From the NCBI GenBank assembly GCA_000091205.1, contig AP006500.2: 64,000 bases of DNA; one strand, written 5' to 3'. Numbering within the stretch: position 1 is the first letter of the stretch; every line of letters begins with the position of its first letter. The stretch is from Cyanidioschyzon merolae (lineage: Eukaryota). Below, in pieces: positions 2,036-64,000 of the stretch. A program made the translations under genes and the position numbers. The notes under the pieces are model-generated. The model was given only the letters and a program-made list of their open reading frames with translations. It did no database searches and was not told where the DNA came from.

Positions 2036-3175
2036 TAACCACCACCATCATCATCATCATGATCATAATTGCTCTGGGATGACGTCGTTTTCATGATGAC
2101 CAGTTCACAACCCTTGCCCGAATCCCTTCTCCTGCTCGCAGCGGCTACCAGGGCATACCCCCAGCGGCATCCACACAGCCGCTGCAGCAGGCGCTCCAGC
2201 TGATCCGCGCGACCCGCGTACGGAGGGCGCCAAGCGCGCGTGCATGACGACCGTTCCGCGGGCCACGCTGACGGGCGCGATCGATGCGCCGCGGCGATCG
2301 GACGCGAACGCTATAGGCGAGTGGAATATTCATCCATAATTGTTCTATAATGTTCTAGTTTCTTGATTGGCGAATCACGCCCTGGAGCGCGGACGCTGCA
2401 CTGCGGATGATGCCGCTTGCCGCACCAGCGTGCGCTGCAGGCTCCTATCCGAGGTGTGCGTGCGTGCGTGCGTGCGTGCCTATATACAGGGACACGTGTC
2501 CCGTAGAGGCATACGTGTCCGAATGGCGATTCTTCGAAGCGTCACGCATGCGGCAATAGCGGGTGCGTTTCGCCTCTGAGAACGTTCCGCTACGTCTCCC
2601 AGCGTACTTGTCAGTGCAGCGTATACCTCGTGCGTCTTCGATATTCAGAACTGCACGCATACGCATGCGTCGTCGTGCGCACAGAACCTGCACGTCGACG
2701 GAAACAAAATGCATAGGATGGAATGCCCTGCTCACGGTCGCTTTGATGGGCTGTCTTCGGGCCACCAGGCGTCATCAGCAGCAGAGCGATCTCATGGTCA
2801 TCGGGCGGGTGCTGTAGGCATGCACTCGAGCAACCAGTACTGACCTGGTACCCGCGATTGCCAGTCTCCCGAGCATCTGCAAGCGCATTATACTACACGT
2901 GTCCTGGTCTGCGATCTGCGCAGGTCGGGCCCCGGGTCCCAGAGCACGAGGTCGTGAGATCAATGCACTCGCTCACGGAAGCTTCAGAAAATGATGGATA
3001 GCGGCTTGAACATGTTTGGGGAAACCGCGCGAAACAGCAAGAGATGCCCGGCGAGCACATATACGCAGAACTGGACGAGAGCATTCCTGATTCGCAAGGG
3101 CATCCCTAGGGGTGCGCGCACACCGTCCCGTACCACGCGCTGGGGCTTGCCGGTCTCGAGGACGCATCCTGCCCG

Positions 3176-5149: not shown

Positions 5150-6539
5150 TAAACTCTATTTGCTTCCTCCGCGAAGACGCGAACCTGTAAAGTGCTATGT
5201 GAGGATGCCAGTGCGCACTGGCACTTGCAGACAGCAGCGGCAACAAGCGCTGCTTCTCCTGGTTCAGTTGACTCCCGAACGCGGTGCCATGTGCATAGTA
5301 CAGAGGTATCAAGGTTTGAGCCATCATGGTGAAGCTCAACGGGTCTTTTTAAAATACGACCTGAGCAAATCTTGATCGAAGAAAACTTGCCGAATATACG
5401 CAACCCGCATCAACACCGTATGCGTAGACACTCCGTGGTTACGGGTACACAAAATCAAGTCTCGGAAAAGTCATCGGAGCATTTTGAGGCGGTCTGCTGG
5501 GTACAAGTCGAGGCAGACGCAACCTGCATTGCCGAAGTTTGACACACACGAACCAAGAATGCTCGCAGCAGTTTGTACACATCGCTTTGCAGCGAACCAT
5601 ACCGAAGCAATGGAGCTTCATCTGGAATGATTTCGTCAGCGTCTGTTGCTTCCCGATTCACCAGCAGTGGCTTTGATGCGCTAAGCAGGAAGCCAGTGCA
5701 GAGGACGATTGTGCACCAGGTTGCTTTGGACCCAACAAGAGTCCAGCATGGCCCGCGCAGTACTTGAACTCGTACGCGCGGTTGCGCAAGCATACGATGC
5801 ACTTGTCTGCAACCTGAGGAGACCTGCCAGTGTACCCTGGTCTGCAGAGGCGCGTTCGCATGCATTAGTCTCAATGCGGAAAAGAACGAACGGACACTGT
5901 TCATGGCTCGCTTGTGGACCCGTGGCCACCCAGAGAAACGACGGGGAACGAAGGCAAGCTAAGCGGGTTCCTGAGGGAGAAGCTCTCGATTCGAACGCGA
6001 GGACGTATCAAGAATTTTGGTGATTATGTTCCCGAGCCTTAAAGCGCTCATGAGAATCGTCCTCTCCTCCGAAAAGGATCGGGTTTCCACGAAATGCTTC
6101 CCCGGCAGCGTCACTGAAATCCACGCACCAGCGTCAGCAGCGAACGCGAATAATGCCACACGAACAATCCAGGCATACGGAATCAGGCAACTCGGAAACG
6201 TGTCATTCACGGCCTCGGAGATGTGGTGCTACCAGGAGGCACAAGCACAGGCAGCAACCGGAATCGTTGCAGAAGCAACAATGCCGGTACTTGCAATCAT
6301 TCCAATAGGAGTGGCTGCGGCTGTGCCAGATTGAAATGCGAAACTGCATTGCTTGCTCGGTTCTTTTCCGTCGTTTTCTCGCCCAGCCTCATGCGGTGTA
6401 CATCCGCTACATTCGAAGCGGAGCAACAGCGGCTTACGAATGCACGCGTCGGTTCAGGATCCGGAGTCGTCTCGTCCGAGAGGCTCCTTGGACGCGTCAC
6501 CGTTGCATTTCCGCATGCCATCGGAATCGAGATAGCTCG

Positions 6540-6960
6540 CGATGCCGCTGGAAACCAATTCCAAAATTAACCGATACCATTCCCGAGTTCATACAATGAA
6601 GCTTCGAGCCTGCCCCTCTCGTTACGTTTAGCATGCTCAAATCACACACGCTCCAAGTATTCGATTTCTCTGTTTCAAGGTCGCTCGTGGGCGGAGCATG
6701 TGGCGCTCCGGCACCGACCACGAAAGAGAATCGGTGTCATCTGCTTGGCAGCTTGTTGACCAGCGTATACCGCAAATTCAGTCAACCTGTAACGTCAAAT
6801 GAGAGAGATCGAATGTGTTCGAAAGACAGGTTCTCGCTTTTCTGTGGTCGTCGTCTACGCGGGATTCTACAGTACCATGACGCCTCTGACAGCGTATGCT
6901 CCAGGATGCTCCAGTCGGTTGCGCTTGCCCGCAAGAGGGTTTCTGAGTCAGACCTGACTC
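6540..6960 (+). repeat. Dispersed repeat family 2, copy 1 (~450 bp, carrying a small conserved ORF)
   Basis: It aligns by eye to 47730-48160 (+) and to the reverse complement of 42330-42800. All three share 'taaccgataYcRttgtYcaatgcaYaRgta...catgYtcaaatcac...ttcaaggtYtcgatYt...tttcaag'. An ORF starts at 6633 (MLKSHTLQVFDFSVS...). Confidence 0.65.
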
Positions 6961-7599
6961 ATCTACGGGATCGCATCCAGTGGAGCGTGTAGCATCGCTT
7001 TGCATGAGGCGAGCGTTGTCGGACGGGAGTCTCTCGACCTGTTCCCTGGTCTGGCGTCGCCTTCGAGGCCTTGGTGCATCATGGAAAACATCGCGCTCCA
7101 CGAACCCGCTATCGAGTGGACCAGCGTGCGCTTCCACGCCCAGCAGACAGCGTCCTCGACGCTGGGAGCGCCCTGAGGAAGCCCCTGATCGTAGAGTACG
7201 GCACGAGACGCAGAGACGCGAGGCGGGTATCGAGGATAGCCTGCAGTGCCTGCCACGAGCGTGTACCGAGCGATGACGCAAGCGTTGACGCGCCACAGGG
7301 CAGCCTTCTCATGAAGACGTGTGGTCTGCATATCGTTAGACCTGAACGCAGCCACGTGTCGTCTCTGCGAAGGGCGTCTCCAGGTTGTCTGGCGAAAGGA
7401 TGAGAGTGGCAGGCGAAACGTCGATCACAACTTTTGCCAGTGCACGGCATGCGTTGACAACAATCGGCAGCTACGACACCGGGATTTGAACACCACCACC
7501 TATATCCATCGACTGCTATCGACGGAGCTGGCGGCAAAGGGGAGACCAGCGTGTTTACACCCGGAGATTCGAGGAAACACAGGGAAACATTCTTGGGGA

Positions 7600-8290
7600 A
7601 AGAGGCCACAAACGCTGGTGCGCATAAGAATAGGACGAAACGAAAACCTCGGTGCGTACGTCTTTATCAGTGGATCTGTTCTATCTGGTACTGGCGTGAA
7701 CAGTGAAACAGAAAATGGTTCACAACCATGGACGGTAGATATATCCACTCACCCGCTGACGTCTCCCGGCCTTTTTGACCGACCCTCTGCTATCTGCTCC
7801 AGCTTTTCCTTCTACTCTTCGAGCCTGAGAGGCTGCCCCACAAACTTGTATCTCGTCAGCCCCGGGGGTCTCGTCTTCAGCACCACAAATCTCCTGGTAT
7901 TGATGACAGCGCTGAGGTCCTGGTACACGAATCCGATGCGTTTGCTGCCGCTGATAGAACTCATCAGTGCAAGAATTCCTCGAACTCGCGCACTCTGTTC
8001 CACTATAGTCTCATTGTCGTCCAGCCCAACAAACACCTTTTCCCGCCTATTTCCCTACTTATTCTTTTTCGTCCTCATTTGCCCCGTTTCGCTGGATGAT
8101 TGACGAGGAGCGGATCTTATTCGTTGTTTTCCAGCAGCCAGCGACACAGTGCATCCACGATCCCCGATTTAGGCATCAATACCTATCCCCTTGACTTTTT
8201 ATTTCTTCAACTGAACACACTGGGAACGCGTCTTCTATAACCCGAGAAAAGTCATTTTTAATGAAACGCATCTGGTAACGGAACACTATT
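7600..8290 (-). repeat. Truncated, diverged copy of the Fanzor/TnpB-like element 3' region (copy B)
   Basis: The ORF at 7812-8036 (-) reads 'RIGFVYQDLSAVINTRRFVVLKTRPPG', homologous to the '[27 protein letters not shown]' segment of copy A. Its downstream part (7600-7810) aligns by eye to the post-stop blocks of copies A, C and D ('gacgtctcccggcctttttgaccg'; 'ccatggttgtgaaccattttctgtttcactgt'). Upstream, 8040-8290 aligns to copies C and D. Confidence 0.7.
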
Positions 8291-8570
8291 GAAGTGAAAG
8301 TCTATACACCGATCGTCTGTCTGGACGGTGGCTCGCCACACCGATCGCACCAACACACGAGTGGCGCTTGCCGCTGCAAAACATACCATTGTTGCTCATT
8401 AGGAGTAGGTTCTAGAGCTTGCACTCCTTGTACGTCGATCATCATCTATACAGGCACAGGTAATACGTTTCCGAGCCAGTGACTTTCCCAGACAGAATCT
8501 GCTTTTGAACTAGCTTGCTGAACGTGTTTGATCGTGCGCTTTGGGAGCAGGTACTTGAGCTTCGACGCTC

Positions 8571-20942: not shown

Positions 20943-21553
20943 CTAGGCTTCGCTTGCCATGTTCACCTTCGTGGTATACAGGCTCGGTGCGCACCCTTCG
21001 CACCGGTGACTCATGACTGTGATCAGATGGTCTCGGACGACCACAAAAACTCGTGACGCTCCAGAGGCTGTAGGGCGGCGTGAGAACGCGTGCTTCATCG
21101 CTCGGTCCGTGCCCTTGACGGTTGAAGAAGGCTCCACGCGATAGTGTCCTCCTCTTCTGCGCACACTACCGCACTCTGTGATCAGGGGTTTCTTCTGAGA
21201 GATCCCTCTGGCGAGTACGCTGTCGCTGCATGCGCAAGCGCGTGCAGTTTTCCGAACAAAACAGCACGGATGGGACGCGATGTTGTCGGTGATGATGCGC
21301 ATTCGGGAAGGGAAATCCAGGTTGGAGATGATATCGAGATATTTCGAAACGTTTACGCCCTGTTCGTGCAACGCGATGACGCAGGTCCGGACCCGGGATC
21401 CACTCTCATGGGAACAGGCAAGATGAGTGCATCAGGGAGCACGGATCCTCTGACTGGTATCATGCTACCATGGAAATCCGTTTTGTCGATGGCCTTGCAG
21501 AGAGGCGGATATGCCCTCCGAATGGCGCGACTCAATTGACGAGAGACGTTCAA
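20943..21553 (-). pseudogene. Possible decayed DDE transposase (pogo/Tc1-like) relic
   Basis: The minus-strand ORF contains 'RIITDNIASHP', resembling the DDE_1 'LLLDNASSHP' motif. An adjacent frame gives 'ALQPLE' (compare 'LQPLDQGII'). Frames are broken and the spacing is atypical. The relic lies in a gene-poor, AT-richer interval of ~3 kb. Confidence 0.25.
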
Positions 21554-23083
21554 TGAACTTGAGGCGTGAACTTGTGATCAGGTCTTCAAAGGACTACGTC
21601 GAGTTCTCTTCTTCGTCAATCTCGCGGGACGCTTCGTTGCGTCTGGGTGTTGCCATGAAGCAGAACGATCGAAAAATTGAAGTGTGCGTCACTTGCGCAT
21701 GCTGCAGGTAACGCTATGGGAAGAGCGGAGCCTTGTACCTTTCATTCGGATGAGGGCGCCGGGTATTTTACGGGAACCCTGTTGGAAGGCGTCAGGAATC
21801 ATACGCCGATTCGGGTGCCATCACGAATGCCAGCGGCACAGAACCAAATGATCCACTTCGAAAAGACGACTGAGCCCTCTAAAACACGTATGAATCCTTC
21901 ATCATTTATGACTGCACTTGGAATGTCGAAGATGTACCTCTAAAACGATTCCGAAACATCGAAAGGCATGAGCAGCTTGAGCAGATCGGTGTTCCAGTGT
22001 ATCGTCTGACACGGGTATTGCACATGCATCATGAACGCAAGCGAGTACGTGGGCGAGTGCAGCTATGTTCGTGTTCTGCGCGACTTTGAGACTCGTATTT
22101 GTGCCACCGCAAGGTTGTCGCACTGGTCGGGGCTCACCCTCGAGTCCAAGTCCCTGTGCAGTGGTGATGATCGCGACGCGACGTGTTCATGAATCGACCT
22201 TCACGACACAATGCTGCTGCAACCGAGAACAGTGATCCTCGCACGCGTTGCGTACATTGCGTGTTTACTACAGACAGCTTGGCTACGACGCTCGACTTGC
22301 TAACGCATCATCTTTTTTCATGATGCTATGTTCGCGAAGATTGTGTTTCGAAACAGTCCCTTGTGTAGCACTGCGGCTCGCAAGTCGCCCGCTTCTGACG
22401 CTTGGGTCGGTTTTGAGCAGCGAGCTCAAAACGGAAACGCCATTCGATGCTTACGGAATCCGGACGATGTGTCTCACACCTACCAATGGAGCAGACAAAT
22501 ATCAGACACATCCAATGCAGCGAATGAACACTAGTTACTTCCACAAGGCACGTTGCACAAGCAAGACTACTTGGGCTGGGAATTTCCAACCCATGTGACC
22601 CAAGCCCGAAATACGTCAGCGCTCGATAGCACCGTTGCAGCGACCAGCTTCGTAGGGAGAACGCTGCACCACCGGCTGCTTCAGACAACGTACCCTGCCG
22701 ATGAGGCAGGGTTCGATACCCGCTACCTATGCCGGCAGCACCACTGGCGCCACCACTACCGCGTTGCTCATGCTGCGCGTGCCCAGCGCGGTGTTCTCTC
22801 TGGATGGCGTCGGAGGCAGCGACAGCGTACCCAAATGACGTCTACATCAGGTCTGCGTCCTGCGCATATTGTTCGCGTGCGCTCTGGTTAGCTTCAGCGG
22901 TACCTGGTAAGCAGTGCTTGTCTCCGCAGCACCAGTTCCGGCGAGGACAAGAGCAGCGGTCCATAGCGCCTGCCAGAGGCAGTAGGCCTTGGCGCATCGC
23001 AACCGGCTCATGGAACGTCCAATGGCAACTGCGCACGTACCCAAAAACACATCCACAAACACAGACATACATAGCGCGTCGAT

Positions 23084-25359: not shown

Positions 25360-25884
25360 CTACGCTGGAGGTCTCTTCTCCAGCACCGCACATCTCCGGA
25401 TATTGATTGCGGCGTTAAAGTCTCGGTTCACAAACTCCATCCGTTTCTTGCCATCGTTGGTTGTACTTACGAATGCGAGTAGCCCTCGAACTTTCGCCCT
25501 CCTTTCCATTTGCTCCTCCGTCAGCGGTCCGAACTTTTTTATATCCTCAGGGCTCCGCTGGCACTTTTCCATATCGACCCGCTGGAGTGTACACCTCAGC
25601 CCGTGGTGTGTATACGATGTTCGGAACTCATCTACAGGTATCGTAACGAAACGCCTTGCGCACTGCTTGTACGTTCTTGTCGTTGGAGCTGGCGTACACC
25701 CTTTTCGGGTCTTCCAGCGCCCTGCTCCGCGTGCTACTACGAGCCTCTGACTTTTATCCTCTTTGAAGGCGCTCATTGGAAAAATTCGCAGATGCACGCT
25801 GCCTCCCACCGTATAGATGAATACGTAGACGAGCCCAAAAGGGCTTTGTGTACTCTTTCCACAGCGCCTCACAATGAGCAACAC
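25360..25884 (-). CDS. TnpB/Fanzor-like nuclease, C-terminal segment (OrfB Zn-ribbon region + RuvC-III)
   Basis: '...[30 protein letters not shown]...[28 protein letters not shown]'. The Zn finger appears degenerate (HH...C...C instead of CxxC...CxxC). Confidence 0.7.
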
Positions 25885-25975: not shown

Positions 25976-26578
25976 CTACGTCTCAATTTTCTTCCTTGCA
26001 TTCATGATTCCCGATTCTCGATAGTATCTCGCTCTCGAGAACCTCAACAGACGCACGTCTTTCTGACGCAAGTTGCCGTCGGTATCATCTCCCCCACGCT
26101 TGGGTACAGCGACGGTTATAATATTCGTGTTCCCGGGGTCCGCGCCACCGACAAAGCAATTCTCATGCACTTTCCGCGTCGCAGGACCCGCCTCCTTCTT
26201 TTTTTCATGCTTCGTCGCGCCAACCGTAAAGTCGTTAGCTTGCACTTTCTGTGTCGCAGGATCCTTCTCCTTCTCATCTTCATGCTTCGTCAGCGGCGGA
26301 ACTGGACGATCCACCTTCAACCGCCGATAGTGTACACACAGGGCTACTCCATCGGTTTCGATCAACCCAGTGAACAACTTTTGCTTGCTTATTTTGAGAC
26401 GTTTGAAAACGAAGATATTCTTCCAGTGCATCTCCCTGTTCTCACCTGTGAACTCTGCCCTCCTTACATCGAACTCGGGACTGATCTCCTTCATGATGCC
26501 ATGAAGGACTCTGGAGCCGGTAGTAACAAAATGTGACTTGATGGTGCACATTGGAACGACGTTGGAGCGCTTCCCCAT
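25976..26578 (-). CDS. TnpB/Fanzor-like nuclease, central segment with the RuvC-I motif
   Basis: '...[51 protein letters not shown]'. It contains an internal tandem duplication of ~66 bp (26160-26290; '[16 protein letters not shown]' / '[16 protein letters not shown]'). It is out of frame with the downstream segment, indicating a frameshift or a small intron. Confidence 0.65.
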
Positions 26579-29500
26579 TAGGGCCGCCTTCCGTCTCTCC
26601 CACTCTTCATTTTTTCGTCACTCAGCTTTATTTCCGCCTTGCGTTCTGGCGCTCGGTCCAGAAACGCGAAATAGCACAGAATGAGGCGATAGTATCTTTC
26701 ATTATCTTTTTTCAGCTCTGATATCTTTTCTCTTGAATTCGCCAGCCCCGAGACTGCACGGTGCTCTTGTATAACAGCACGGATTACAGAAGCTTCATTC
26801 GTGCTCCTGCGTGATTTCTTCTCGTCGACGAATTCGATCTAATCTTCATGCTTGCGATCGTTCGTGATACCGTTGATAATCGCCCATATTCCTTTGCGAG
26901 ACAGGCCCGGGTAAATTGCAAACACGGCGCATATCATAAAACGTTCGAGGTTCATCCTCAAATGCTTCTTCAGGTTCGTGAGGTACTTCATCGCCCCGTA
27001 TGTGTAAGTATCCCGGTCACCCCTGTATCGAGTACCCTCGAAGCGGAATTCCGCGAAGTTTTCGTGGAGGACGTGCACTAGCTCATTTTCCGTCCGCGTT
27101 TCCCCTGTGCCAAGCATCAGGTGACGAATAAAGGTCTTGTCGAAAACTCGTCCGGAATCTCGACTGTTTCCGTATGCGCCACGTCTTCGTACATCTCCCT
27201 CGCCATATGCATGACTCCTAAAGAAGCCTTTATAACACTCATGGGGTACGAATCGACACGGTTCCTGATAGCGTCTCGCAACTTTTCCTTGTAGGGATCC
27301 TTGATATGTTTACGAAGACAGGCGTTTACCACCATCTCGTCGTACTTTCGTCTTTCGTACAGCATGTAAAGTCGGGTCTCCTGCCTTAGCTTCTTCGTCT
27401 TCTCCTGCTCCACTTGGCTCGGCACTCTGTTTCGCTTTCTCTGGCAGCCGGCGAGGTTGTACCACCGGTATCATCCACTTGCTTCTCCATACGTTTCCAT
27501 TTTTGAAAAAGAACGCGCTTTGATCGCTTCTGCTATGTAGCGCGAAAAATCAATCGAATACACCCCCCCTGAGGATTGAAACACAATGGAACTGAGAAGC
27601 TATACTTGCGGCCACTTTCACACAAATACACCCTGTACGATAGAACAACACGCGAAAGATCAGAATCGCGTTTCCCTTCAACGGCGACATGCGCGTCATG
27701 TCTCGTGACTGCCGGATCTCCCGGGTGCGCGTATCGAGCGCACTATGTACCAACAAGAACATAGACTAACGATAAACTACCAACGATACAAAAATTCCTT
27801 TCCCCTCTACGATAAACGTTGAACGTGGGAAACCGCTTCCGTACTGTCGAAAGTTAGCCTTCTTGACGGAAGGTCCCGCGAGCCGGACGAGTCTGTCACG
27901 TTTGTGTTTCATGCTGCACTCAGTGGCAGGTACTTCAGTGGCAGGTACTTCAGTGAAATCTGAGCCACTCGTCCGCAACGCAGTTTCCTCTGAGACTAGG
28001 GGCAGTTAAGCTGTGTCTGGGCGTCGCCCATGTTGCAACTATCTCCGAGCATATCGCTTGGCGCTGCTGCAGGCAGTAGGGCTGTCTGCCCAGTTTTCAG
28101 GCTCCCAGAATGACAATTAGCTCTGATTCCGTGTCAGGTGTAGTATTCGTCGGGCCGACACCATCGGGAGTATGGCAAAGCCGTTCTGGCTACGTGCAGC
28201 ATCTGCTCCAGCGGTGTAGGCGCTGCAGCGGGTGCTCAGCGCAGGCACTCGGCACACGGTAGAACGTTCGAAACGATCAGTATACCCGAGATGAAGAGTA
28301 AGTAATGGAACTTGAAGGTAGGATGCATGATGATGGGCGCTTCCCCGAAAGCCATTATCTATGCCGCAATCTGAGATCCATGGTTCATGTAAACGTTTTG
28401 ATATCGAAAAAAAAATCGCTACCGCCATTGTCATCCCCGCGGATCCATCAACTGGTGATCGCCTCGTCCATGATCTGTTTCATTGCACAGGTCGCTCGAT
28501 GGACAAGCGTTCCTCAACTGCGCGCTTGAGATGAGCGATCGGGAAAGCATCCATCGATCTAGGTCCTGCCTCCAAGTTCCGTGGTGCATACGTCTCCTCC
28601 GAGTGTACTCGTTATCTCTTATGTTCTGTGGTATGCGTCGAGGCTGTTGTGAGCGTTTGCGATAGCGCGTGTAGCGTCGATGCGCACGCAGCCCCGAGGT
28701 CATGTCCACGAAGCGGTTTGTGTGCACGGCCGCCGATGTATTGCTAGTGAAACATGTCGATACAGTGGATCGGGAGTGCTCTGGATGCACTGGTGCTGTC
28801 GGCAGCTGGGGAATGGACACTTGTTTCTTCTCGGATATGGCAGCGTCGTGATGCCTGCAGACCAATTTCCTAGACGAGAATCGGGATTCATAGCATAGAC
28901 GCTTGAACGCTGCGCCCTATCAAACCGCTGGTAGCGGAGCCTGTGGCAGCGCGCAACCCTATACGCCCGCTCGTGCCGCGGAGCATGGCGCAGGCTTCAT
29001 GGTATTCGCGCATGCGTTCAAAAAAGGGTCCCGGAGTGCATCGCTGCCCGTTCCACTGAGGTCGCAGGCTCACCGATACCGCCTCATCGATCCTGGGGCC
29101 GTTCATATCAGTGGATGGAGGTGCTGCGTGATGAAACTACGCAGAGAGGTTTTACCTGGATTCAGACTGCAGCAGGAAGCACGCCTTCGTTCAGTCTCGA
29201 GAGTGCTTGCCTCAGCAGCAGCGCAGTGTCATTTGCCATGAAAACCTACGCAGGTGTCCCAGCGGTCCAGCGTCGCGAGAGGCTACGGATAGCAGCTCCC
29301 CCCGGATCGATGCAGATGCAATTGCGGCTAGGCGAAACCGATATCTGTGCCCGGCACGAATCGTGAATGTGGATACGTATACGGATGCATCCATAAGTGC
29401 GTCCATCGCTCGCCAAGGTCGATGCAGCGTCCGTTATTGCGCAAAAAACGACGATTCCGTGGACCTTCAGCGAAAAGGCGAGCTGCGCTCCACATTCCAT

Positions 29501-39386: not shown

Positions 39387-41195
39387 CTACGACGATGTCA
39401 ACGGTGGGGAAGGCGCGCGCTCCTGCTCACTTCGTCGCGACGCTCTTCGTGGCTGTAGAACCGGATGCTGTACCGTATCTTGGGCTTCATCGTCAGAGGA
39501 ATCGATCAGGTGCTCGTTCACAGAGACGCCACGATGCACTTCATTCGTGCTCTCCATGCGGGTGTGTGCAGTCTCCACATCGATCAGGTCCTCGGCAGCC
39601 GGGGCCGTTGGCGACAATGCCGCCCAACTAAGATTCTCGTGGAGCGGTAGCAACTCATGTTCTGGTTCCGCTTGCATCGGAGCGGAGGTGCATCCGTCAC
39701 CATCTTCTGGCGGTACGATGGGAGCAGGCGCACGCTGTGCAACGTGGCCATCCGGGGATAATGCTGCTCTGAAAAATGCATTCGTTTCGCAGAGCGTTCG
39801 AAACTCTGTGAGAGCTCGCTCTGCATCACAAAGCAGCCGTGATGCCTCCTGTCGTAGCGGAGGCTCCACGATGCGCGGTACAAGGCTAGCGAGCCCGTCG
39901 CGCATCATTTGGACTCGTTCAAAGCGACTGCGTGCGTTCTCCAGCGTCTCCGAGTTGGGCGAAGTACCCACTGGTGCATCTCGAAAGCTATCGCACATTG
40001 CCTGGAAGAGGTCAATCGTTTCACGCGTCTCCTGGAACGCAGCCCGCAAGCGGTTCAGCATCTGGTCTCGACGGTTTGGCGGAGCCTGCACCGGACTCGG
40101 TGTCGGATACCAGGTCGGACCGCTCCCGTACTGACAGAAAACGCCAGCGTGCATGGACGCAGTCCATGCCCACATCCACGCTTGCGGTAAAATCATTGGT
40201 GCTCGATAAAATCGTCGCACTGAGGCCGCTGGTGCCCCAACGTTCGCTGACGCCGGCACCGTTGTCCCAGGCACTGGTCGTCGTTCGGCAGTGCCGGCTG
40301 TCGGCCGGGGCCCAGCTCCGCTCCCGGACGTTGACGCTGGGCGACGAACCCTCCGGTATCGTGCGGAGAGAGAGAGGCCGTCGCGCTGGACTGCAGCAGC
40401 GGCCTGCTGGAACTCGGGAATCTCTGCAACCAGGGGCGTCATGACCTGCGCCCAATGGATCAGGCACTGGCGAGCTCGAACGACCAAGACCTGGCACTCT
40501 ACTGGGACAGCCGATGGACTCGTTACCCCTTTTGGTGCCGGCGGTTGCTGCGGATCATCGACGCAGAGCGGCAGAAGCGCGATCTGCTGGATGAGCGGCA
40601 AGTTGTATCGGATGAGCACCCGATTCACAGCTATGTTCGTGTTCATAACGCAAACGTCCAGCAGGGCAAGCGCTGCTAGCGCGTCACAGATTGCTCGAGT
40701 GTCAGCGGGGGGGCACTTTGCCGGCGCGACTGCTGACGGTTGGCGAACGACCTGAGCATACTTCTGTTTTTGGCGCCAGGGCCAGTGCCAACCGAAACTA
40801 CGCGATCGTGAGGTACCAGAAGCCGACACTGGCTCTAGAGCCGCCTCCGAGACACCGTCACCTCCTGGACCCTGCCTCCGTTGCAGAACGCCCTGGGCCC
40901 AGGGCGAAAGCACGCGCTGTACCGCCGTGAGCGCTGTGCGCAGTGTCTGCTCGAGTGCCTCCGCTCTGGAGTGCTCCTCGACAGCTGCGTGCGCAATGTC
41001 CAGCTGACGACACCTGAGCGCAGGTGTTACCGCTTCTCTTAAAATATCGGTAGCGTACTGCTCACTGGCCTGACGAAGCACCTGGTTGAGGTCTCGTTCA
41101 AATGCCTCCGCCTCAGCGGTGGCTCGCTTACCGCCGTCCGTGCGGAGCATCCAGTCTACCACACGTGTTGGCAATGGTCTCGTATACGCAATCAC
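39387..41195 (-). CDS. Hypothetical protein of 602 aa with no recognisable domain
   Basis: A long uninterrupted ORF in a GC-rich region. A 256-aa opposite-strand ORF overlaps it, so coding status rests on length alone. Confidence 0.35.
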   Translation of the reverse strand: MIAYTRPLPTRVVDWMLRTDGGKRATAEAEAFERDLNQVLRQASEQYATDILREAVTPALRCRQLDIAHAAVEEHSRAEALEQTLRTALTAVQRVLSPWAQGVLQRRQGPGGDGVSEAALEPVSASGTSRSRSFGWHWPWRQKQKYAQVVRQPSAVAPAKCPPADTRAICDALAALALLDVCVMNTNIAVNRVLIRYNLPLIQQIALLPLCVDDPQQPPAPKGVTSPSAVPVECQVLVVRARQCLIHWAQVMTPLVAEIPEFQQAAAAVQRDGLSLSARYRRVRRPASTSGSGAGPRPTAGTAERRPVPGTTVPASANVGAPAASVRRFYRAPMILPQAWMWAWTASMHAGVFCQYGSGPTWYPTPSPVQAPPNRRDQMLNRLRAAFQETRETIDLFQAMCDSFRDAPVGTSPNSETLENARSRFERVQMMRDGLASLVPRIVEPPLRQEASRLLCDAERALTEFRTLCETNAFFRAALSPDGHVAQRAPAPIVPPEDGDGCTSAPMQAEPEHELLPLHENLSWAALSPTAPAAEDLIDVETAHTRMESTNEVHRGVSVNEHLIDSSDDEAQDTVQHPVLQPRRASRRSEQERAPSPPLTSS

Positions 41196-42329
41196 TTATA
41201 AAGGTCCAAGAAACTTCGCCTTCATTGCCCTCGAGCGTACGGTTATGCCGAGGAATTCCCTGCCCTGTAACGGGAGCGCGACATAGGGCGCTCTGCTGTC
41301 CGCAGATTGCGGCGAAGTGGCAGCGCGCAGCTGGACAGCAGCATCCCCCGGAGCGTATCGCCTTTTCGTGAGAGCGGAGCGTATCCGAAGGAGGGATTTC
41401 CTTCGGGTGCAGGATTATAGACGTGAGCTTGTTTTTCCCAATAGCGCCATGGTTATGGGATATCCGGGAGAGCGTCTGGTTTTCTGAAGGATATGGCTTG
41501 CACTGCCCCAGCGTACAGACAAGGCGAGCTGGGGCTTGACTTTACGGCATCGTCGCTGGATACGTTCGACGTGCTTGCACTGCATCTGCGTCTTTTCACT
41601 AAACATTGTTTGATCGGGCGGGTTTTTCTTTTGGAATGCTAAGCTGATGCGTGCGCATAGAAGCGGTTGGATGCCTGCATCATGAGTGTCAGCATGGGAA
41701 CGGGCCAGGTACACGTTCCGAACTCGGGCGTGAACGCTAGCTTTCTTGTTTCTCTCAGGTGTGATGGACAGCTGCCGTTGGGGAATTTTTTTCGGCGACT
41801 GTTCACGTTTTCTCTCTTAGTTCCAGATTACAATATGCTGGTCTATTCTTTCCATCCAGCTCTGTTCACAGCAGTTGACGGATGTTGGCGGTAGCGTTCA
41901 AGTCCGGATTTCGTACCTGCCGACAGTTGTCAACGCATTTCATGCACAGACGCAAGATGCGGTGTAGGCTCGCTTGACATCTTCATCTTTTTCATGTACA
42001 GTCTCGGTACGCAGTTTGCAGCTGTGACTCCTGGATATGGACAAATGAAGTATAAATCTATCTGCCATACCCTCTCGACTGAGATCCACGTTGAAGCGCG
42101 TAAACGCCTGCTAGATCGCTCCGTATACGCCCTTATATGAAAGGCGATCCTCGATGCCCTGCTCCGTTTCCGTGCCAGGAGCGATGCCCTGCAATGACGC
42201 GCTTGGTTTGGACTATACCGTCGGCGAATGTGCTGCCGGCTGAACGTGCAAGCGCATGCCGTCCATGATAAAAATTAGCTGAGGGCATATCATAACTGGA
42301 CAACAAGTCGAGAAATGTCGATTCGTCTA

Positions 42330-42800
42330 CGCTTTCCTCGTGCGGCACGGTAACGAACGCCCGACTGCAAAACGATCGCCGTGCTGACTGAACGCCGAGT
42401 CCAGGATGCGTATCGGGGCAAACCGAAGCGAGGCGAGCCTCTGGGCGCTCATCGTGTGAGAGCGATCATGCTGCAGCTGTCGAGTTCTGGTTCGCCGGCG
42501 GCCACCCAGGGTGGGCATTGTCTTTCGAAAGAAATCGATTCCTTGACATGACAAGTTCAGAGAAGTTTCGATTTGAACTTGTGAGAATGTCATCAAAGAG
42601 CGATGTGAATTTATGTGACTTCTTCGTCAATCCATCGCAGCGCATCGCTGTGCGCATGCGGTGCCTTGAAATGTAGAGATCGAAAACTTGAATCATGTTT
42701 GATAGGAGCACGATACACACGTACGTGAGGGAGAAGATTCGCGGATTCTACTTGTGCATTGGACAATGATATCGGTTATTATACGAACTCTTGTTCGCCG
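42330..42800 (-). repeat. Dispersed repeat family 2, copy 2 (reverse orientation)
   Basis: The reverse complement of 42660-42790 reads 'taaccgatatcattgtccaatgcacaagta...aaacatgattcaagttttcgatctctacatttcaaggcac', which matches copies 1 and 3. An ORF at 42466-42720 (-) begins 'MIQVFDLYIS...'. Confidence 0.65.
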
Positions 42801-42949
42801 GCGTCGCAAAACATCTCGATTTCGGTAACGGAATGAATTCCTTGTCCAAAGCGTTAAAGGAGCGATTCCGAAACAAAGGAAAAACACCGAGCATCTTTAA
42901 ACTACGTTCAAGTAAGACTTGATTCCTGCACTCCGAATATCGAGGTTGC

Positions 42950-43650
42950 ACAGCTAGAACATAGTTCCGGAAAAGAATCGAACTGGATGAACAAAGCGAG
43001 TCATCCCCTACTCGATTTTATCGTCAGCGAAATGAGAAATGTTCTACGATAATTGAGGGTGTATGAATACATACATACGCAGACGCCTCCCAGCCTTGTT
43101 TTGACCGGTTCCCCGATACCGGTTTCAGCTTCTCCCTGTATACTTCGATCCTGAGAGGCTGCTGGACAAAAGTTGGACCGGGGCAGCTTCGAGGGTCACG
43201 TCCCCGGTACCAAACTTCTTCTGATATTGATGGCGGCGTTGAAGTCTCGGTTCACGAACTCCATGCGTTTATTGCCGCTGGTGAAGCGTATCATTGCAAA
43301 GATCCCTAGAACTCGTACCCTCTGTCCCAGTACAATCTCGCTATCGTCCCATCGGACAAACAGCTGTTCTCGAGTATATATCCCCTGTTCTTGTTCTTCG
43401 TCACTTGCTTTTCTTCGCTAGATAGTCGACGAGAAGAGGATCTTTTTCGGTTTTTATCCCGGTCGCCAGCGACACCAGCCCTCTAGAATCCCCGACTCCC
43501 ATGTCCATACGGTTCGCTTAGATTTCTTATTTCTTCAAATGAACGCTTTTCGGACGCTTCGATTACAAACCGAGAAAAAGCGTTTGATGCGACGCACCCG
43601 GAGATGGCGCACAATTCAAGAAAGCGTCTACAATCTGACACGAGCCCACC
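42950..43650 (-). repeat. Truncated, diverged copy of the Fanzor/TnpB-like element 3' region (copy C)
   Basis: The reverse complement of 43201-43260 encodes '...[20 protein letters not shown]'. The reported plus-strand ORF 43173-43421 is the antisense frame of this. The flanks align to copy B ('cttcgatcctgagaggctgc', 'gcagacgcctcccagccttgttttgaccgg', 'ttatttcttcaaatgaac...ccgagaaaaagcgtttgatgcgacgcacccgg'). Confidence 0.7.
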
Positions 43651-44692
43651 GCGGCTCGAGCAGGCAACGTACGCTCAGTGCCGCCTTTCGCTTCCTCGGT
43701 GTCGGTCTGGTACCTGGGCGCCACGAATGGGGCGCTGCAGCTCGTGTCGGAACAAGACGATATACTTTTGCTATGTAAATCGAGAGTTTATTTGCTTGAA
43801 CTGCGTGTTCCAGCCGAGGTATGAACTTTCCGTTGTGCGCTCGTACAAGGAATGGATTCGAGACTCGAGCTACGAGCAGCCTCCACGTTGTCCGTTTACC
43901 GGAGCGCCTCTCCGACACGGTGAGGAGCTGGTTCGGCTACCACCCCCTGACCTACGTGTGGTTTCCGCCGCGGGACTCGCAGCTTATCTTCGTGGGCGTT
44001 TCGGCCCGGACACAACACCAGCAGGATTCCGTTCGAACGAGCTGCCTTTCGGGTTGGTGCCGGACCCGCAGGATGACTCTGCAGTGGCGCAGCGTTTGCG
44101 GAGGTTCCTCGCGTTGCTCGGCTATGATGCAGCTCTAGCCGTAGCAGAGCCGCTGGAAGACAAACGTTCGAGTCCCGGCACCGTCTCGGCAGAGGGAGGC
44201 ACGCAAGCCGCCAGCGAGGCAACGCTGTTGGAGCGGCGCCTCCCGAGCGAGCAACGCCCGGTGTCTCGCCCGCTGGAGGCCACCACAGAGGCCGTGAGTC
44301 GCACGGCGCCGCGAACGGGCTCCAACACAACGATCGTGGTGGAGTCTCACAAAACCTCCGAGCCCGACTCCACGACAGCGATCGCTCCGGCACGGAAGCA
44401 GAACGCTGCTGGTCGTACAGCGGATAATGACAGCAAGGAACGCAAAATACGACAACAGAAAATACGGCGGTTCCTCAACTTTTTAGGTCAGAGCGCTGAA
44501 GTGCTCCCTTTGCCACATCCACGACCTAATCGTCGAAACCGTCGTCTGACGGGGCTCGCGCTGTCCTTCGGCTTCGGCGTGGGTATTTTAGTGTTTCTCG
44601 CGTACGTGGTTCGTCATGGTCTATTCAATCCGCTGGCTTTATGGGAATATGTCGTCGAAAGACGTCAGGGCATGTTGAGCGTTGAGCGTTGA
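43604..44692 (+). CDS. ZFPL1: ZFPL1-like (zinc finger protein-like 1) tail-anchored Golgi protein
   Basis: The N-terminal Zn-finger/RING-like region 'CSSCRNKTIYFCYVNREFICLNCVFQPRYELSVVRSYKEWIRDSSYEQPPRCPFTGAPL' matches the ZFPL1 pattern ('...NLFCFEHRVNVCEHCLV...CIVQSYLQWLQDSDY...C..C..PL'). There is a single C-terminal transmembrane helix, 'LALSFGFGVGILVFLAYVV'. Confidence 0.7.
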   Translation: MAHNSRKRLQSDTSPPRLEQATYAQCRLSLPRCRSGTWAPRMGRCSSCRNKTIYFCYVNREFICLNCVFQPRYELSVVRSYKEWIRDSSYEQPPRCPFTGAPLRHGEELVRLPPPDLRVVSAAGLAAYLRGRFGPDTTPAGFRSNELPFGLVPDPQDDSAVAQRLRRFLALLGYDAALAVAEPLEDKRSSPGTVSAEGGTQAASEATLLERRLPSEQRPVSRPLEATTEAVSRTAPRTGSNTTIVVESHKTSEPDSTTAIAPARKQNAAGRTADNDSKERKIRQQKIRRFLNFLGQSAEVLPLPHPRPNRRNRRLTGLALSFGFGVGILVFLAYVVRHGLFNPLALWEYVVERRQGMLSVER

Positions 44693-46249
44693 AAGCGCTA
44701 CTCGAAACAGCGAATCATCCCAGCGAATGTGTACCTCATGGAACCGTGTGCGCGCTTTTCACGCAACTGCTCGCTGCTCGCTATGCTGCCCAGACTGCAC
44801 ATAGCGCGTTGCCTCGAGCAGTATGCCCATATTCGCTCGATATACGAATGGCGACCTGTTCAAGGGCGAAGCGCAAGCTCCCGGCGTACGCGCTCTTCGT
44901 CAAGTGCGTCACGGCGGTCTCGTATGTGCACACGCCAGCGTCAAGCTGCCCGGAGAGAGACTGCAGCGCCCTGCCGCCGTACCACAGTGGCCTCTGGGCG
45001 CCCTACTCGGGCGATAGCCATGATCGATATCAAAGCATAGCGGAAACCATGCGGTGTCGCTTGTGCTCGCGAGGCTCCAGGGAAGATTCGTATCAGTTCA
45101 TGAACAGCGGCATGTTTTTCTTGTCGCATGAGAGCACGATGCGCGAGTCACTTCATGCGCAGCGTACAGAGAAGCAGAACTGTGTTATCCGCAGTATACC
45201 GGAAGCAGGTCGTTGAGATGATGGCGATTCCCAACTTAAGCGTGGATGCTTTTTGTCTGCTTCATAGCATATTCCGATGAATCCGCATCTGCGTATCGAC
45301 CAAGGCGCGGAAGTTTGTGTGGCGTATGCTAAGCATGCTTTGGCGAGCGTATGCTTGTAGACGAGGCCCGAAGACATTGGACGCAAGCCCGCGGACGTCG
45401 CAGCTGATACGACGCGCTCTTATGGGAAATACTTGCAGGTATCATAGCGGTTGTAAAAAACCCCCAACGAGATGCCGCTGCCAATGGTCCAGACTGTTGT
45501 GTTGCGGTGGACGACACGAACGCGCGCTGCCTCCACCTGCACCCGAGTTCGGAACAGCACACAACCACAGCGTCTAGCTCTGGTTGCGCGTAACGGCCGA
45601 AGTAGCTAGCATCCTCTGCGCTTCTGGACGGACGGTTATTCTGGGATGAACCAGTTGCGCGAGAGGATTATCGCCGCTCAGAAACAGATGCTCGCACTGT
45701 AGCGCGAGTGCTGCACCTTCCGAAAAAGCGCTTGGGCCGCACTTGCCTTAAGTGGCGGTTTCCAGTGGTGCTGGGCGCCATCGAACCCTTTGGATTGTGA
45801 GCGGGAAGAGCGGCAACCATGCAGTGACTGGCAAAGTGCACGCTGCACAACAAACCGAGCCAGACACGGAGAGCGCAGCTCATGACCTGTGCTGCAGCAG
45901 TGACCCTGCCTCGCTCACAGAGCCCAACTCGTGTCCATTGGTGAGTTCTAACAGCGACCTGCCGTCAACTATGTGTTCTACAGGTGCCTGAGACACGCGC
46001 TTCAGGTCTCCGGTCAGCGCTATGCGGGTATGGCCGGTTAGTCACCGGGTACGAGCGGACTGCAACTGACCACCGTGTTGACTGCTCAACGCGAAACAGC
46101 TCTTGCGCCGGAAAGCGCTCTCTATGAACGCTTCGACCAGGTGGTATGTTCACCCTTCAGACAAGTGACGAGTTGTATGCGTATACCAGCGACTGGCCCG
46201 GAGCGTCTGGGGCCGCGGCAACCACTACCCTAGCGAGCACCGGTACCTC

Positions 46250-47335: not shown

Positions 47336-47729
47336 CGTTCATTCGTGTCGGCAGCTCGGCAGCACGAGCGCTAGTCAGAACGGCGCTTGCACCCAGAAAC
47401 GCGCTTGAACGACAGAAATATTTGTTAAGCGAGCAATGGGGTCTCGCTTGCCAAACCAGCCGGAGCAATGTTCGGTTGTTGGCGAACTCTACACCCGTGT
47501 CAGAGTAAAATGGGACACTGAACCGCTCGCTCTCTTCATTCCCATGGATTTTCTTACGACAGATCTTAGATGTCCAGCATCGACGTGAGCAGTGCGGCAG
47601 TACGAGATGATGGACTCATGCGTACTTTAAGGATGCTTGGACGTCTTTTCGGAGCGACTTGCCCGAGTGTATGTCGCAGGGATTCGGTACGGCATTGTCG
47701 TACTGATGGTCCTCGCCACCCTCGAACGA

Positions 47730-48160
47730 GGGTTCGTAATCTAACCGATACCGTTGTTCAATGCATAGGTACAGGCCTCCGCTGCCTCAAGTTTCTAGCG
47801 TGAAACATGTTCAAATCACGCATTCTTCAAGGTTTCGATCTTTGTGTTTCAAGTCGTGGATACAGTAAATCCGCCTTCGGATTCACGACGAACAAAAGCT
47901 CCATGTCGCGCCTCAACGACTTGTTCACAGGCGCGTACCCAAAGTCCACTGGACTTGGAACCTCAAATAATAACCGATTCCAGTCGATAGACAAATCATC
48001 GTTTCTTGCTGACGATTCGCGAAACCGGATTCCACAGTAGCAGGACGCTTCTCGACAGATTTGTTTCCAGTGGCTCCAGTTTCTTCTGTTTGCACGGGAA
48101 AGGGCCTTAAATTCAGAACTGAGTCATCACAGCGATCGATTCCAGCTGAGCATACGTCAC
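47730..48160 (+). repeat. Dispersed repeat family 2, copy 3
   Basis: 'ctaaccgataccgttgttcaatgcataggta...gtgaaacatgttcaaatcacgcattcttcaaggtttcgatctttgtgtttcaagtcg'. An ORF at 47807-48040 begins 'MFKSRILQGFDLCVSS...'. Confidence 0.65.
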
Positions 48161-49015
48161 CTCTTTGCAACAAAACAGCGTAGACCGATCGACATTTCTC
48201 GACTTGTTCTTCAACCTGGATTTTCCTTCCGGTACTTTTTTTCATCTCGGATAACATTGCATTCCGCAAATCCTCGATCGAATGCGACGCAGTGCGCTAG
48301 CGTATGCAGCGGACAGTGTACTCGCCCAGGGCATGTATCCGAACTGGCGCGTGTGAACGTCGGGCACGGCACCGGGCGCGGAAACGGTGGCCTGCATCGA
48401 GGCGCGCCTTGTGTTCGCGTCAAGCTCATGTACCGAACGATAAAGCAAGCGCTCACGCTCCACAGAACGGATACCAGAGGCGGAGGAGAACCTGTGATGG
48501 GCGTGCCAGAGAACATCACCCCAGCTCAATATCACCGCCGCAATGGGTGCACCGCGGCTTCATACGAAAGAAGATGAACATGGCAAGCGAGACGTAGATT
48601 GCAAGTTTCGTCGATACATGGAATTCGTCAACAGCAGCCGGAATCAACGACATCGGGACATGAACGCTGCCAGCAACAGCCTTTAAATACTAACAACACG
48701 GTACACGATAGAACCTATGCAGCAACCAGTATATCCCAGAGCACGTATGGAGTTTGGGGCTTGGAAGCAGGGCGCGGAATCATGTATGCTTCACCGCGCG
48801 CTGATATCGAGCGCACTGTCGGGGAACGCTAGCGTGCTTCAACGTTTTTGTCACAGAAACAAGAATGCTGACAACGGGACTGGAGGGAAACGATAGACCG
48901 GCGTATTCAAATCCGGAGAAAACGTGTTGAAAAGGAAGCATTCGCAGAGAACGCCCTCCTAGACGAGAACTGATGACACTGGGAACAGATCCAGACTTTA
49001 GCATGTACGCTTTCG

Positions 49016-62224: not shown

Positions 62225-62624
62225 GCGAAGCAGCTCAATACGCTAACCCTATGCCGGGAACGACGCGATGGGAGAAGGCTTGCGCCAGAAACGCACGTCC
62301 AGTGTGTGTGTGTATGCGAGACAGAGAGCGCCTACGCGAGTCCCGTGCGCGCACCGTTTGCAGCAATGCGCGCGCGCCGTTTGACGCCCCCCAGCGCGCC
62401 TGGACGCGCACCGCACCGAGGCGCTGGCCCCGCGCACCGGTGCCGTTTGATGGCGCGCCTGGACGCGCGAAGCGGCGCCTTCGGTACATCGCGCGGCGCT
62501 CGAGCGCGCGCCGGCACGCATCGATCCACGAAAGGTGCCCGCGACGTCGCGATGGCAGCTGCACGCACAGCATGTGACGTGACAACACGTTTCGGGGACA
62601 CGCTGCGGCGTGTTGCGTCGAATT

Positions 62625-62663
62625 ACGTTGCGCGCTGGTAACTAGCGCGCAACGTAATTGTAT
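62625..62663. repeat. Perfect GC-rich inverted repeat, 15-bp arms and a 9-nt spacer (aattacgttgcgcgc-tggtaacta-gcgcgcaacgtaatt)
   Basis: The right arm is the exact reverse complement of the left arm. It lies ~400 bp upstream of the WNK kinase start codon and at the 5' edge of Fanzor-related copy D. Confidence 0.9.
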
Positions 62664-63300
62664 TCCGTGGCCGGGAGCGTGTCGTCGAATGCTGTTTCGC
62701 GGTTGATGGCAGGGGCGTTGACGTGCGTTCATTTGAATGAACGAAAAAAATCCAAAGGAAATGCATGGAGATAAAGGTCGGGGATTCCAGAGGGCTGGCA
62801 TCTCTGGGTACCGTGAAAGGACTGAAAATTCTCTTCTCGTTGACTATCGGGCGTAGGAGAGCAAGTGACGAAATGGAAGAAGAGAAGATATCATCGAGAC
62901 AAGGCGTTTGTCCTACGGGACGATGACGGGACTATAGTGGGACGGAGGATGCGAGCTCTAGGAATCCTGGCAATCATGCGTTTCACTGGAGGCAATAAAC
63001 GCAAGGAAACCGTGAACCGGGACTTCAACGCCGCCATCAATACCAGATGATGCGCGGCGCTGGAGACGAGACCCGAGGAGCAGAGGCGAGCGAGCTTTGT
63101 GGGGCCCCCTCTGAGGCTCGATGTCTACGTCGAGGAAAGTGATACCGAGCGCAGGCGGTCGGTCAAGAAAGGTTGGGCAGCGTCTGCGCGTGGACACGTA
63201 CGTAGATCTTCCATGGCTGCGAAACGTTTGCGTTTACTGTCATGTTTAGTAGAGTTTTTTGGTTTGACACGTCGTCTACAGCGACGATAGATCCCAGATT
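62650..63300 (+). repeat. Truncated, diverged copy of the Fanzor/TnpB-like element 3' region (copy D, plus orientation)
   Basis: The ORF at 62865-63050 (+) reads '...[33 protein letters not shown]'. Downstream, 'gtcggtcaagaaaggttgggcagcgtctgcgcgtggacacg...ccatggctgcgaaacgtttgcgtttactgtca' matches the post-stop blocks of copies A and B. Upstream, 62690-62865 matches copies B and C. A perfect 15-bp inverted repeat sits at the 5' boundary (62625-62663). Confidence 0.7.
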
Positions 63301-64000
63301 GCGGGATGGAATCTGGTATTCGGGAAAGCATCGAACATGCAGCACCCTACCTTCAAGCTTTGTAACCCCGAATGCTTCTCGTATATATTGGTAGTTTCGT
63401 ACAGTCTATTGCGCATCGAGTGCCTGCCCTGAGCACCCGCTACAGCGCTTATACCGCTGGTGCGCATGCAGCACAGTAACGGAACGCCTTTGCCATACGA
63501 CTTGGGGCGTCGCCTGGAGGCGAACTGCCCCTGAACCAGGCTCCGGTCTTGTCGCCGCTGCGCGACGCTCTGGAGAAACCAGACAGCAGCTAGGATGAAT
63601 CCTGAGCGCCGCCTCTCACGTTCGCGATGTTGTACGCAAAGCGTTGTCGGTTGGCGACGCGGGCTTTTGCTTGGCATTCACCAGTGAGCAGGTGTGCAAG
63701 GCACCGGGCCTTCCGACGAGAAGGTAGAATGTGAGTTTGCTGGCCGCTACTGAGCGTTGGGGCTCGCTCAGTTACGAGACCGACGCCTCAATCGATACGA
63801 GCGCGGATGGATTGGACGGGCGTATGCGGCCTGTGGGGTGGTCTTGTGCCACAGGCGCTTCCGCTGACGGGTACGCGGTGCGCTCGGAGCTCGGGTGCTC
63901 TGCGCGTTTGTTACGGAGTATTGGGGTCAGCGCTGGACACGTTCAGGTACGGAGTAGGAAAATAAGCATGCATAGGATGGGGGTTTGTTGTCTTGTGCGC

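Follow-up and report, generated by a model that had tools for sequence, protein, structure and literature searches.

The closest known relative of the element treated here is CMe-1A of Cyanidioschyzon merolae, a 3169-bp transposon with about 150 copies that are each about 80% identical to their consensus, and which encodes a 734-aa Fanzor1 protein (Bao & Jurka 2013, PMC3627910). It was published without terminal inverted repeats (TIRs), its target duplications undetermined and its class unknown, and its 5' 635 bp are those of another repeat, TE-N2_CMe (PMC3627910). A second point of reference is provided by PUl-1 and PUl-4, Mariner/Tc1 elements of Pythium ultimum that carry Fanzor1 and, as described for the PUl elements, have 24-33-bp TIRs and TA duplications (Bao & Jurka 2013, PMC3627910). 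Comparisons with CMe-1A below use the consensus from the supplement of that paper (PMC3627910).

The window (the whole 64-kb stretch of DNA that was analyzed) contains a complete CMe-1A copy at 28406-25173 on the minus strand, which matches CMe-1A 1-2195 at 83.6% and 2122-3169 at 87.8%. Its Fanzor1 ORF, at 25-28 kb, has recognizable RuvC-I (GADPGNTN), RuvC-II (VDEFRTS) and RuvC-III motifs and is interrupted by several stops and frameshifts. Together with the 56.7% G+C of the window and its single-ORF ZFPL1 gene, the match to CMe-1A points to Cyanidioschyzon or a close relative as the host. The window also contains short units of about 605 bp, one of which, copy C, lies upstream of ZFPL1. We conclude, with a probability of roughly 0.85, that copy C is the dead remnant of a non-autonomous, internally deleted form of CMe-1, a known Fanzor1 transposon family.

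The short unit compared with CMe-1A

Copy C is a discrete repeat copy of 610 bp (Table 1), 82% identical to a unit consensus built from 16 copies. The left-end profile matches it from 43631 to 43540 (E=5.5e-15) and the right-end profile match stops at 43021 (E=1.4e-25); among 80 related loci, no copy reaches past the ends of copy C. The first-pass annotation had placed the feature at 42950-43650 with a 5' boundary near 43640. The element does lie inside that interval, but it occupies only 43021-43630, with its left end at 43630.

Table 1. Features of copy C (window coordinates) and loci carrying DDE_3-bearing siblings (coordinates within each locus)
Feature	Coordinates	Strand	Basis
Whole element, copy C of the ~605-bp internally deleted CMe-1-type (Fanzor1) derivative	43021..43630	-	End profiles
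Left terminal region (TAGACGCTTTCTTGAATTGTGCGCC...), homologous to CMe-1A nt ~786 onward	43597..43630	-	Left-end alignments
5'UTR and N-terminal coding remnant (CMe-1A nt 832-969)	43443..43587	-	BLASTN
C-terminal Fanzor coding remnant (CMe-1A nt 2880-3084)	43079..43282	-	BLASTN 73.4%, E=1.4e-29
RuvC-III motif codons (RDFNAAINI), intact	43223..43249	-	Motif search, six-frame translation
Premature stop, TGA vs consensus AGA (Arg), giving ...VPGT and stop	43197..43199	-	Comparison with 16-copy consensus
Right terminal region (...GTAGAACATTTCTCATTTCGCTGACGA)	43021..43054	-	Right-end alignment, consensus ORF
TA dinucleotide next to right end, possible target-site remnant	43019..43020	.	Right-end alignment
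82-codon ORF, antisense by-product, no gene	43173..43421	+	Antisense to Fanzor remnant
DDE_3 sibling loci	L005 1869-3410; L032 1829-3343; L049; L015; L023; L012; L083/L070; L084; L058; L059 (second site)		

The 16-copy consensus holds a single intact 158-codon ORF, beginning MDMEVGDPGGPSSPAAGKKGKK, in which CMe-1 Fanzor1 residues 1 to ~57 are fused in frame to residues ~640-728. Amino acids 1-67 of this ORF match CMe-1 aa 1-61 (E=5e-15), with the N-terminal peptide MDMEVGDPGGPSSPAAGKK of the unit corresponding to CMe-1 MEKEVEDPGGPVSPAAGKK, and the match to CMe-1 aa 640-728 is at 68.5% (E=6.6e-37). At the nucleotide level the consensus aligns to CMe-1A in two blocks, 786-969 (80%, E=2.5e-45) and 2840-3084 (77.6%, E=2e-52). 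Because the alignment falls into these two blocks, the unit is an in-frame internal-deletion derivative rather than a 5' truncation, with the left end, 5'UTR and start codon all retained, followed by ~57 N-terminal codons, ~95 C-terminal codons and the right end. The earlier description of the unit as truncated therefore has to be replaced by one in which both ends, the 5'UTR and N-terminal codons are retained.

Missing from the unit, relative to CMe-1A, are the TE-N2 part at the 5' end (1-635), nt 636-785, nt ~970-2840, which hold most of the gene, and the last ~30 bp. The unit measures 605 bp against 3169 bp, and it cannot encode a nuclease. Its right tail also differs from that of CMe-1A and resembles a diverged full-length lineage (L051). 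By contrast, the protein motifs around RuvC-III are identical in the unit and in CMe-1, and the two are of similar age, at ~80% identity to consensus in both.

These relationships hold for copy C itself. Its nt 44-188 match CMe-1A 832-969 at 70.5% (BLASTN, E=7.7e-14), its ancestral start codon lies at 43508-43506 (-), and the Fanzor HMM matches 43324-43157 at positions 578-634 of 667 (E=1.9e-12; overall span 578-655); copy C had been called Fanzor-related from its letters alone, and these matches, with that of the C-terminal remnant (E=1.4e-29), bear this out. There was no match between copy C and CMe-1A 1-785. A proposed reading of 43625-43548 as a Fanzor 'RAFANFF...YGAG' region, with 'LLVDY' as RuvC-II, was dropped when the profile search gave nothing there; this stretch is the left end of the element and its 5'UTR, corresponding to CMe-1A 786-905.

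The RuvC-I aspartate (GADPGNTN in CMe-1) is deleted from the unit, and the RuvC-II glutamate (VDEFRTS, [TS][TS]) falls, together with the zinc-finger region that follows it, inside the deleted aa ~58-639; no RuvC-II was found in any frame of copy C. This leaves the RD motif of RuvC-III as the sole RuvC motif in the unit. As had been claimed, that motif is intact at the sequence level in copy C, but its integrity has no functional meaning, since RuvC-I and RuvC-II are absent and copy C carries a stop and frameshifts. Set against a functional Fanzor1/TnpB gene, copy C thus has RuvC-III and lacks RuvC-I, RuvC-II and an open frame; set against CMe-1A, it has the nucleotide homology and lacks the full architecture (TE-N2-like 5' 635 bp plus 734-aa ORF, ~3.2 kb). 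With only the two ends of the Fanzor gene kept, copy C is no working gene but a fossil.

The VPGT at which the protein reading stops in copy C was initially taken as the natural end. It is instead a nonsense mutation: the 16-copy consensus at this site reads ...AAG ACG AGA CCC... (protein reading ...VLKTRPEELTRSNF...), and in copy C the AGA has become TGA and is followed by a +1 insertion, beyond which the homologous reading (FVQQPLRIEVYREKLKPVSGNRSKQG) goes on in another frame to 43021. A CGA to TGA change at this stop is ruled out by the AGA of the 16-copy consensus. The ancestral stop, TGA, is at 43026-43024 (-), 3 nt from the right terminus.

Several features of the full-length family were noted alongside. 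TE-N2_CMe-like fragments are present in the window at 63265-63520, 28539-28642 and 48696-48791 (CMe-1A nt 4-256 at 76.6% plus shorter pieces); one such fragment begins ~20 bp past the right end of unit D, and L003 has a TE-N2 fragment in inverted orientation after a unit. Comparison of 5' extensions (L069, L046, L043, L029, L041 and L062 vs L001, L059, L075, L051 and the window copy; L064/L072) indicates that full-length CMe-1-type copies have a common core from about CMe-1A nt 640 and at least 3 different 5' extensions, with TE-N2 in one subset only. In L081 and L054 the 5' segment is a head-to-head inverted duplication. The CMe-1A right end, nt 3146-3169, has a marginal inverted match to internal nt 703-726 (16/24, p=0.016), located in the window at ~27704-27681 and 25196-25173, the internal site being ~700 nt from the left end. 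A K/E/D-rich tandem repeat of 75 bp (25 aa) occurs in the window Fanzor1 ORF (26166-26216 vs 26241-26291), and its copy number differs between family members (proteins P0001-P0006).

Copies of the unit and their decay

Other copies of the unit in the window, at 7697-8306 (-) and 62640-63245 (+), are 69-71% identical to copy C. By BLASTN, 43078-43601 of copy C matches 63188-62671 at 71.0% over 527 bp (E=1.4e-63), 43078-43578 matches 7754-8250 on the same strand at 69.1% over 502 bp (E=4e-51), and a shorter segment, 43194-43276, matches 25370-25452 at 81.9% (E=2e-17). The first-pass annotation had assigned copy C the same architecture as its copies B and D, which are the copies at 7.7-8.3 kb and 62.6-63.2 kb; the shared architecture is confirmed, and identities of 69.1-71.0% are far above chance. 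About 14 further distinct short copies have the limits of copy C and unrelated flanks, none of them extending past C43616 or C43017.

The wider family was surveyed in a scan of metagenome contigs that gave 80 loci from a handful of samples. Two of them, L017 (100% identity) and L011 (99%), represent the window locus itself, so the window derives from a eukaryote that was assembled in these metagenomes. In tblastn with a 752-aa relative, the loci split into full-length copies and short units, the latter matching only over the last ~60 residues. A protein search with the 25-28 kb Fanzor returned 200 relatives at 60-78% identity, nearly all from JGI sources; when the short unit served as query, most of the hits were ORFs that had been called within decayed copies. 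Among these, database 'proteins' of 108-123 aa were considered as a conserved mini-ORF and rejected, as they are gene-caller ORFs starting from an internal Met (MEKCQRSPE...) of decayed full-length copies. Pfam gave no significant family for the stitched full-length copy and its homologues, using a library without PF26935/DUF8286. The particular short subfamily and its DDE_3-bearing siblings, treated below, may be undescribed.

More distant Fanzor fragments also occur near members of the family: L020-L024 (e.g. L020 2275-3321) carry an intermediate Fanzor lineage (P0123/P0124-like) beside an inverted CMe-1-type 3' fragment, and in L012-L014 another diverged Fanzor fragment (31% identity) lies in reverse ~400 bp downstream of a unit.

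Every one of the 16 copies is broken by one or more in-frame stops and one or more frameshifting indels; in copy C, comparison with the ancestral ORF gives 1 in-frame stop and 5 frameshifting insertions. Substitutions in the 16 copies are spread evenly over codon positions (0.195/0.214/0.215), which, together with the broken ORFs, indicates neutral decay. Identity to the consensus is 75-82% across at least 16 distinct copies, and mean pairwise identity is ~0.66 whether copies are compared inside a subgroup or across subgroups, which makes the pattern star-like. Taken together, the decay and the star-like pattern suggest one old burst of copying followed by neutral decay.

Copy D differs from the others at its left end. 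The first-pass annotation had aligned the 5' boundary of copy C with a perfect palindrome in copy D; the palindrome, at 62621-62659, is real, but with 19-nt arms (62621-62639 and 62641-62659) that are 95% complementary it contains 1 mismatch, and copy C has none. The first 19 nt of unit D form the right arm, and an inverted copy of them just outside the unit forms the left; the palindrome is absent from copies C and A and is private to D. A small inverted duplication or hairpin repair is a possible origin.

Ends, DDE_3-bearing siblings and mobilization

In the family consensus, the left terminal region is one arm of a weak terminal inverted repeat: the left end (TA followed by TAGTCTTTCAACTCAATTGTGTTCCAC) and the reverse complement of the right end (TGGTCAGTGAAACCAAAAACGTTCCAC) agree at 19/34 positions (shuffle p=1.5e-4). 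The ends of copy C agree at only 10/34, so that no inverted repeat is detectable there. Of 17 copies, 6, including copy C, have TA immediately after the right end, against a window TA frequency of 0.029 (P=6e-6); the left flank of copy C is TG in element orientation. The TA at the left end cannot be taken as evidence of a target-site duplication, because it is also present inside full-length CMe-1A (nt ~784-787). No empty site was found.

At least 9 sibling loci (Table 1) have the left end of the unit, a ~1-kb DDE module in the 5'UTR, the same deleted Fanzor ORF as the unit and the right end of the unit. These composites are ~1.5 kb long and 67-72% identical to each other. Their transposase matches Pfam DDE_3 (PF13358, E=3.6e-13) and an NCBIfam IS630 model (E=1.2e-13), and is 28% identical to the Mariner transposase of the Fanzor-carrying PUl-1 (E=2e-9). 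All sibling DDE_3 ORFs are degenerate, with no intact transposase seen, and the 64-kb window has no DDE_3 ORF. An alignment hint (MAFFT) of a second left-end-like copy inside these siblings had no nhmmer support and was set aside.

The siblings share with PUl-1 and PUl-4 the order left end, DDE transposase, Fanzor-derived ORF, right end, and the weak TIR and the TA by the right end in the unit family may be a further likeness to Fanzor1-carrying Mariner/Tc1 elements. Unlike in PUl-1 and PUl-4, the Fanzor part has an internal deletion, every transposase copy is degenerate, and the ends offer no more than a weak TIR and a possible TA duplication; copy C, moreover, is without any transposase. The unit also resembles MITE-like internal-deletion derivatives, in being ~0.6 kb long, keeping both ends, having no functional coding capacity, and occurring as many dispersed copies with unrelated flanks and one deletion junction common to all. 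It differs from such derivatives in its modest copy number (at least 16 distinct copies), its poor terminal repeat and a transposase source that is inferred.

Tc1/mariner-type mobilization of the unit family in trans is therefore a reading that we hold at a little below even odds. Assignment of the CMe-1 family as a whole to mobilization of this type, by way of the DDE_3 siblings, the weak TIR and the TA flank, is likewise tentative. Against the mobilization reading, CMe-1A reaches past the unit at both ends, by ~150 bp on the left and ~30 bp on the right. In addition, the short form is colinear with CMe-1A at the site of the DDE_3 module, which therefore appears to have inserted into the 5'UTR and may be a passenger and not the mobilizing enzyme.

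We propose the following history. A CMe-1-type Fanzor1 element of a Cyanidioschyzon-like red alga underwent one internal deletion, with the loss of ~580 codons including WED/REC, RuvC-I and RuvC-II. It was left with the left end, the 5'UTR, the ~57 N-terminal and ~95 C-terminal codons in frame (with RuvC-III) and the right end, and this ~605-bp unit then spread to many loci in one old burst. Because the unit encodes no transposase and no possible nuclease, its movement must have depended on an enzyme acting in trans. The mobilizing enzyme would most likely have been an IS630/Tc1-mariner-type DDE transposase as in the sibling copies, a type to which the weak inverted repeat of the termini and the TA at the right end would point. 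Today copy C is a neutrally decaying insertion upstream of ZFPL1, with no activity as a gene.

Setting near ZFPL1, alternative readings and meaning

ZFPL1, a single-ORF gene whose product matches Pfam zf-B_box_ZFPL1, starts at ~43727, 97 bp from the left end of the element. The upstream neighbor is a 602-codon minus-strand ORF that starts at 41195, so copy C sits in a 2.5-kb space between two divergently oriented ORFs; the G+C content of the window is 56.7%. Weak repeat segments occupy 41837-41947, 42265-42389 and 42543-42824 in this space. The lower end of the unit had been said to abut a repeat of a second family, but the segments at 42265-42389 and 42543-42824 end ~197 bp away; with several repeat fragments in the intergenic region, its description as a transposon-derived island is a fair one. 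Two further old repeat families, unrelated to CMe-1A, are represented at 67-76% identity (7440-7550 vs 41947-41837; 42265-42824 vs 47723-48245, 6522-6680 and 21536-21681), and both lie downstream of units A and C, in opposite relative orientation and order.

One ZFPL1 contig from another sample, L002 (JGI 3300053657, 1425 bp), is 99.6% identical to window 43709-45058 from 43709 onward, and its first 75 nt have no match in the window. It was considered as an empty site or a spliced transcript and rejected as both, since it diverges at 43709, which is not the element end, and there is no AG splice acceptor at the break. The break, 18 bp ahead of the ATG, might reflect either a rearrangement at strain level or a chimeric assembly.

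We weighed three other accounts of the unit. A simple 5'-truncated Fanzor pseudogene, of which the 3' part of the gene alone was copied or retained, is what protein-level searches would suggest: in copy C, the profile of full-length relatives finds no more than HMM positions 578-655 of 667, and tblastn with P0002/P0003 spans only the last ~60-80 residues. We consider this very improbable, because the upstream 250 bp align to CMe-1A nt 786-969 (E=2.5e-45 for the consensus, E=7.7e-14 for copy C), and the junction and left limit common to all copies argue against 5' truncation. The omega-RNAs of TnpB/Fanzor systems lie in the 3' gene end and right end, which is the part that the unit keeps. The ~605-bp units, retaining a promoter/5' region and a 3' omega-RNA end, might accordingly have been guide-RNA-only satellites that supplied guide RNA in trans to the full-length CMe-1 Fanzor nuclease and once programmed it at their own flank. 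The reconstructed ancestral 3' 228 nt indeed fold better than shuffled sequence in the sense direction (z=-3.57; antisense z=-1.46), but the 3' region of copy C itself is not unusually structured (z=-0.9), and RNAalifold over 15 lineages gives a weak structure (-13.2 kcal/mol, 21 pairs, 1 compensatory) whose paired columns lie in coding sequence. A search of Rfam gave no match. With the neutral decay of the copies, and a right tail unlike that of CMe-1A, also counting against it, the satellite account is quite improbable.

Selection for a mini-protein (the 158-codon fusion or the antisense ORF), or exaptation of the insert as a ZFPL1 or divergent-promoter element, would draw on the in-frame consensus ORF, on an antisense frame that is open in many copies, and on the proximity of the insert to the ZFPL1 ATG (97 bp) in a region 100% and 99% identical in two further samples (L017 and L011). 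Yet copy C has its stop and 5 frameshifts and all copies are broken, which speaks against a mini-protein, and no codon-position bias was found in any frame. Stop-free stretches of 82 codons or more number 380 in the window, so the suspicion that the plus-strand ORF at 43173-43421 is just the antisense frame proved justified: it has no codon-position signal, and comparable stretches abound. The region upstream of ZFPL1 is also not fixed, as L002, from another sample, differs upstream of 43709. We regard selection or exaptation of this kind as extremely improbable, and return to copy C as a dead internal-deletion derivative of CMe-1.

As such, copy C itself has no coding potential and is the fossil of a transposon family known since 2013. 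For the annotation of such fragments it carries a caution, in that an 'intact RuvC-III' means nothing functionally. The recognition that the short units are in-frame internal-deletion derivatives, amplified as such, will be of value to transposon specialists, and the IS630/Tc1-mariner-type transposase in their siblings provides a testable lead on how CMe-1-type Fanzor elements moved.
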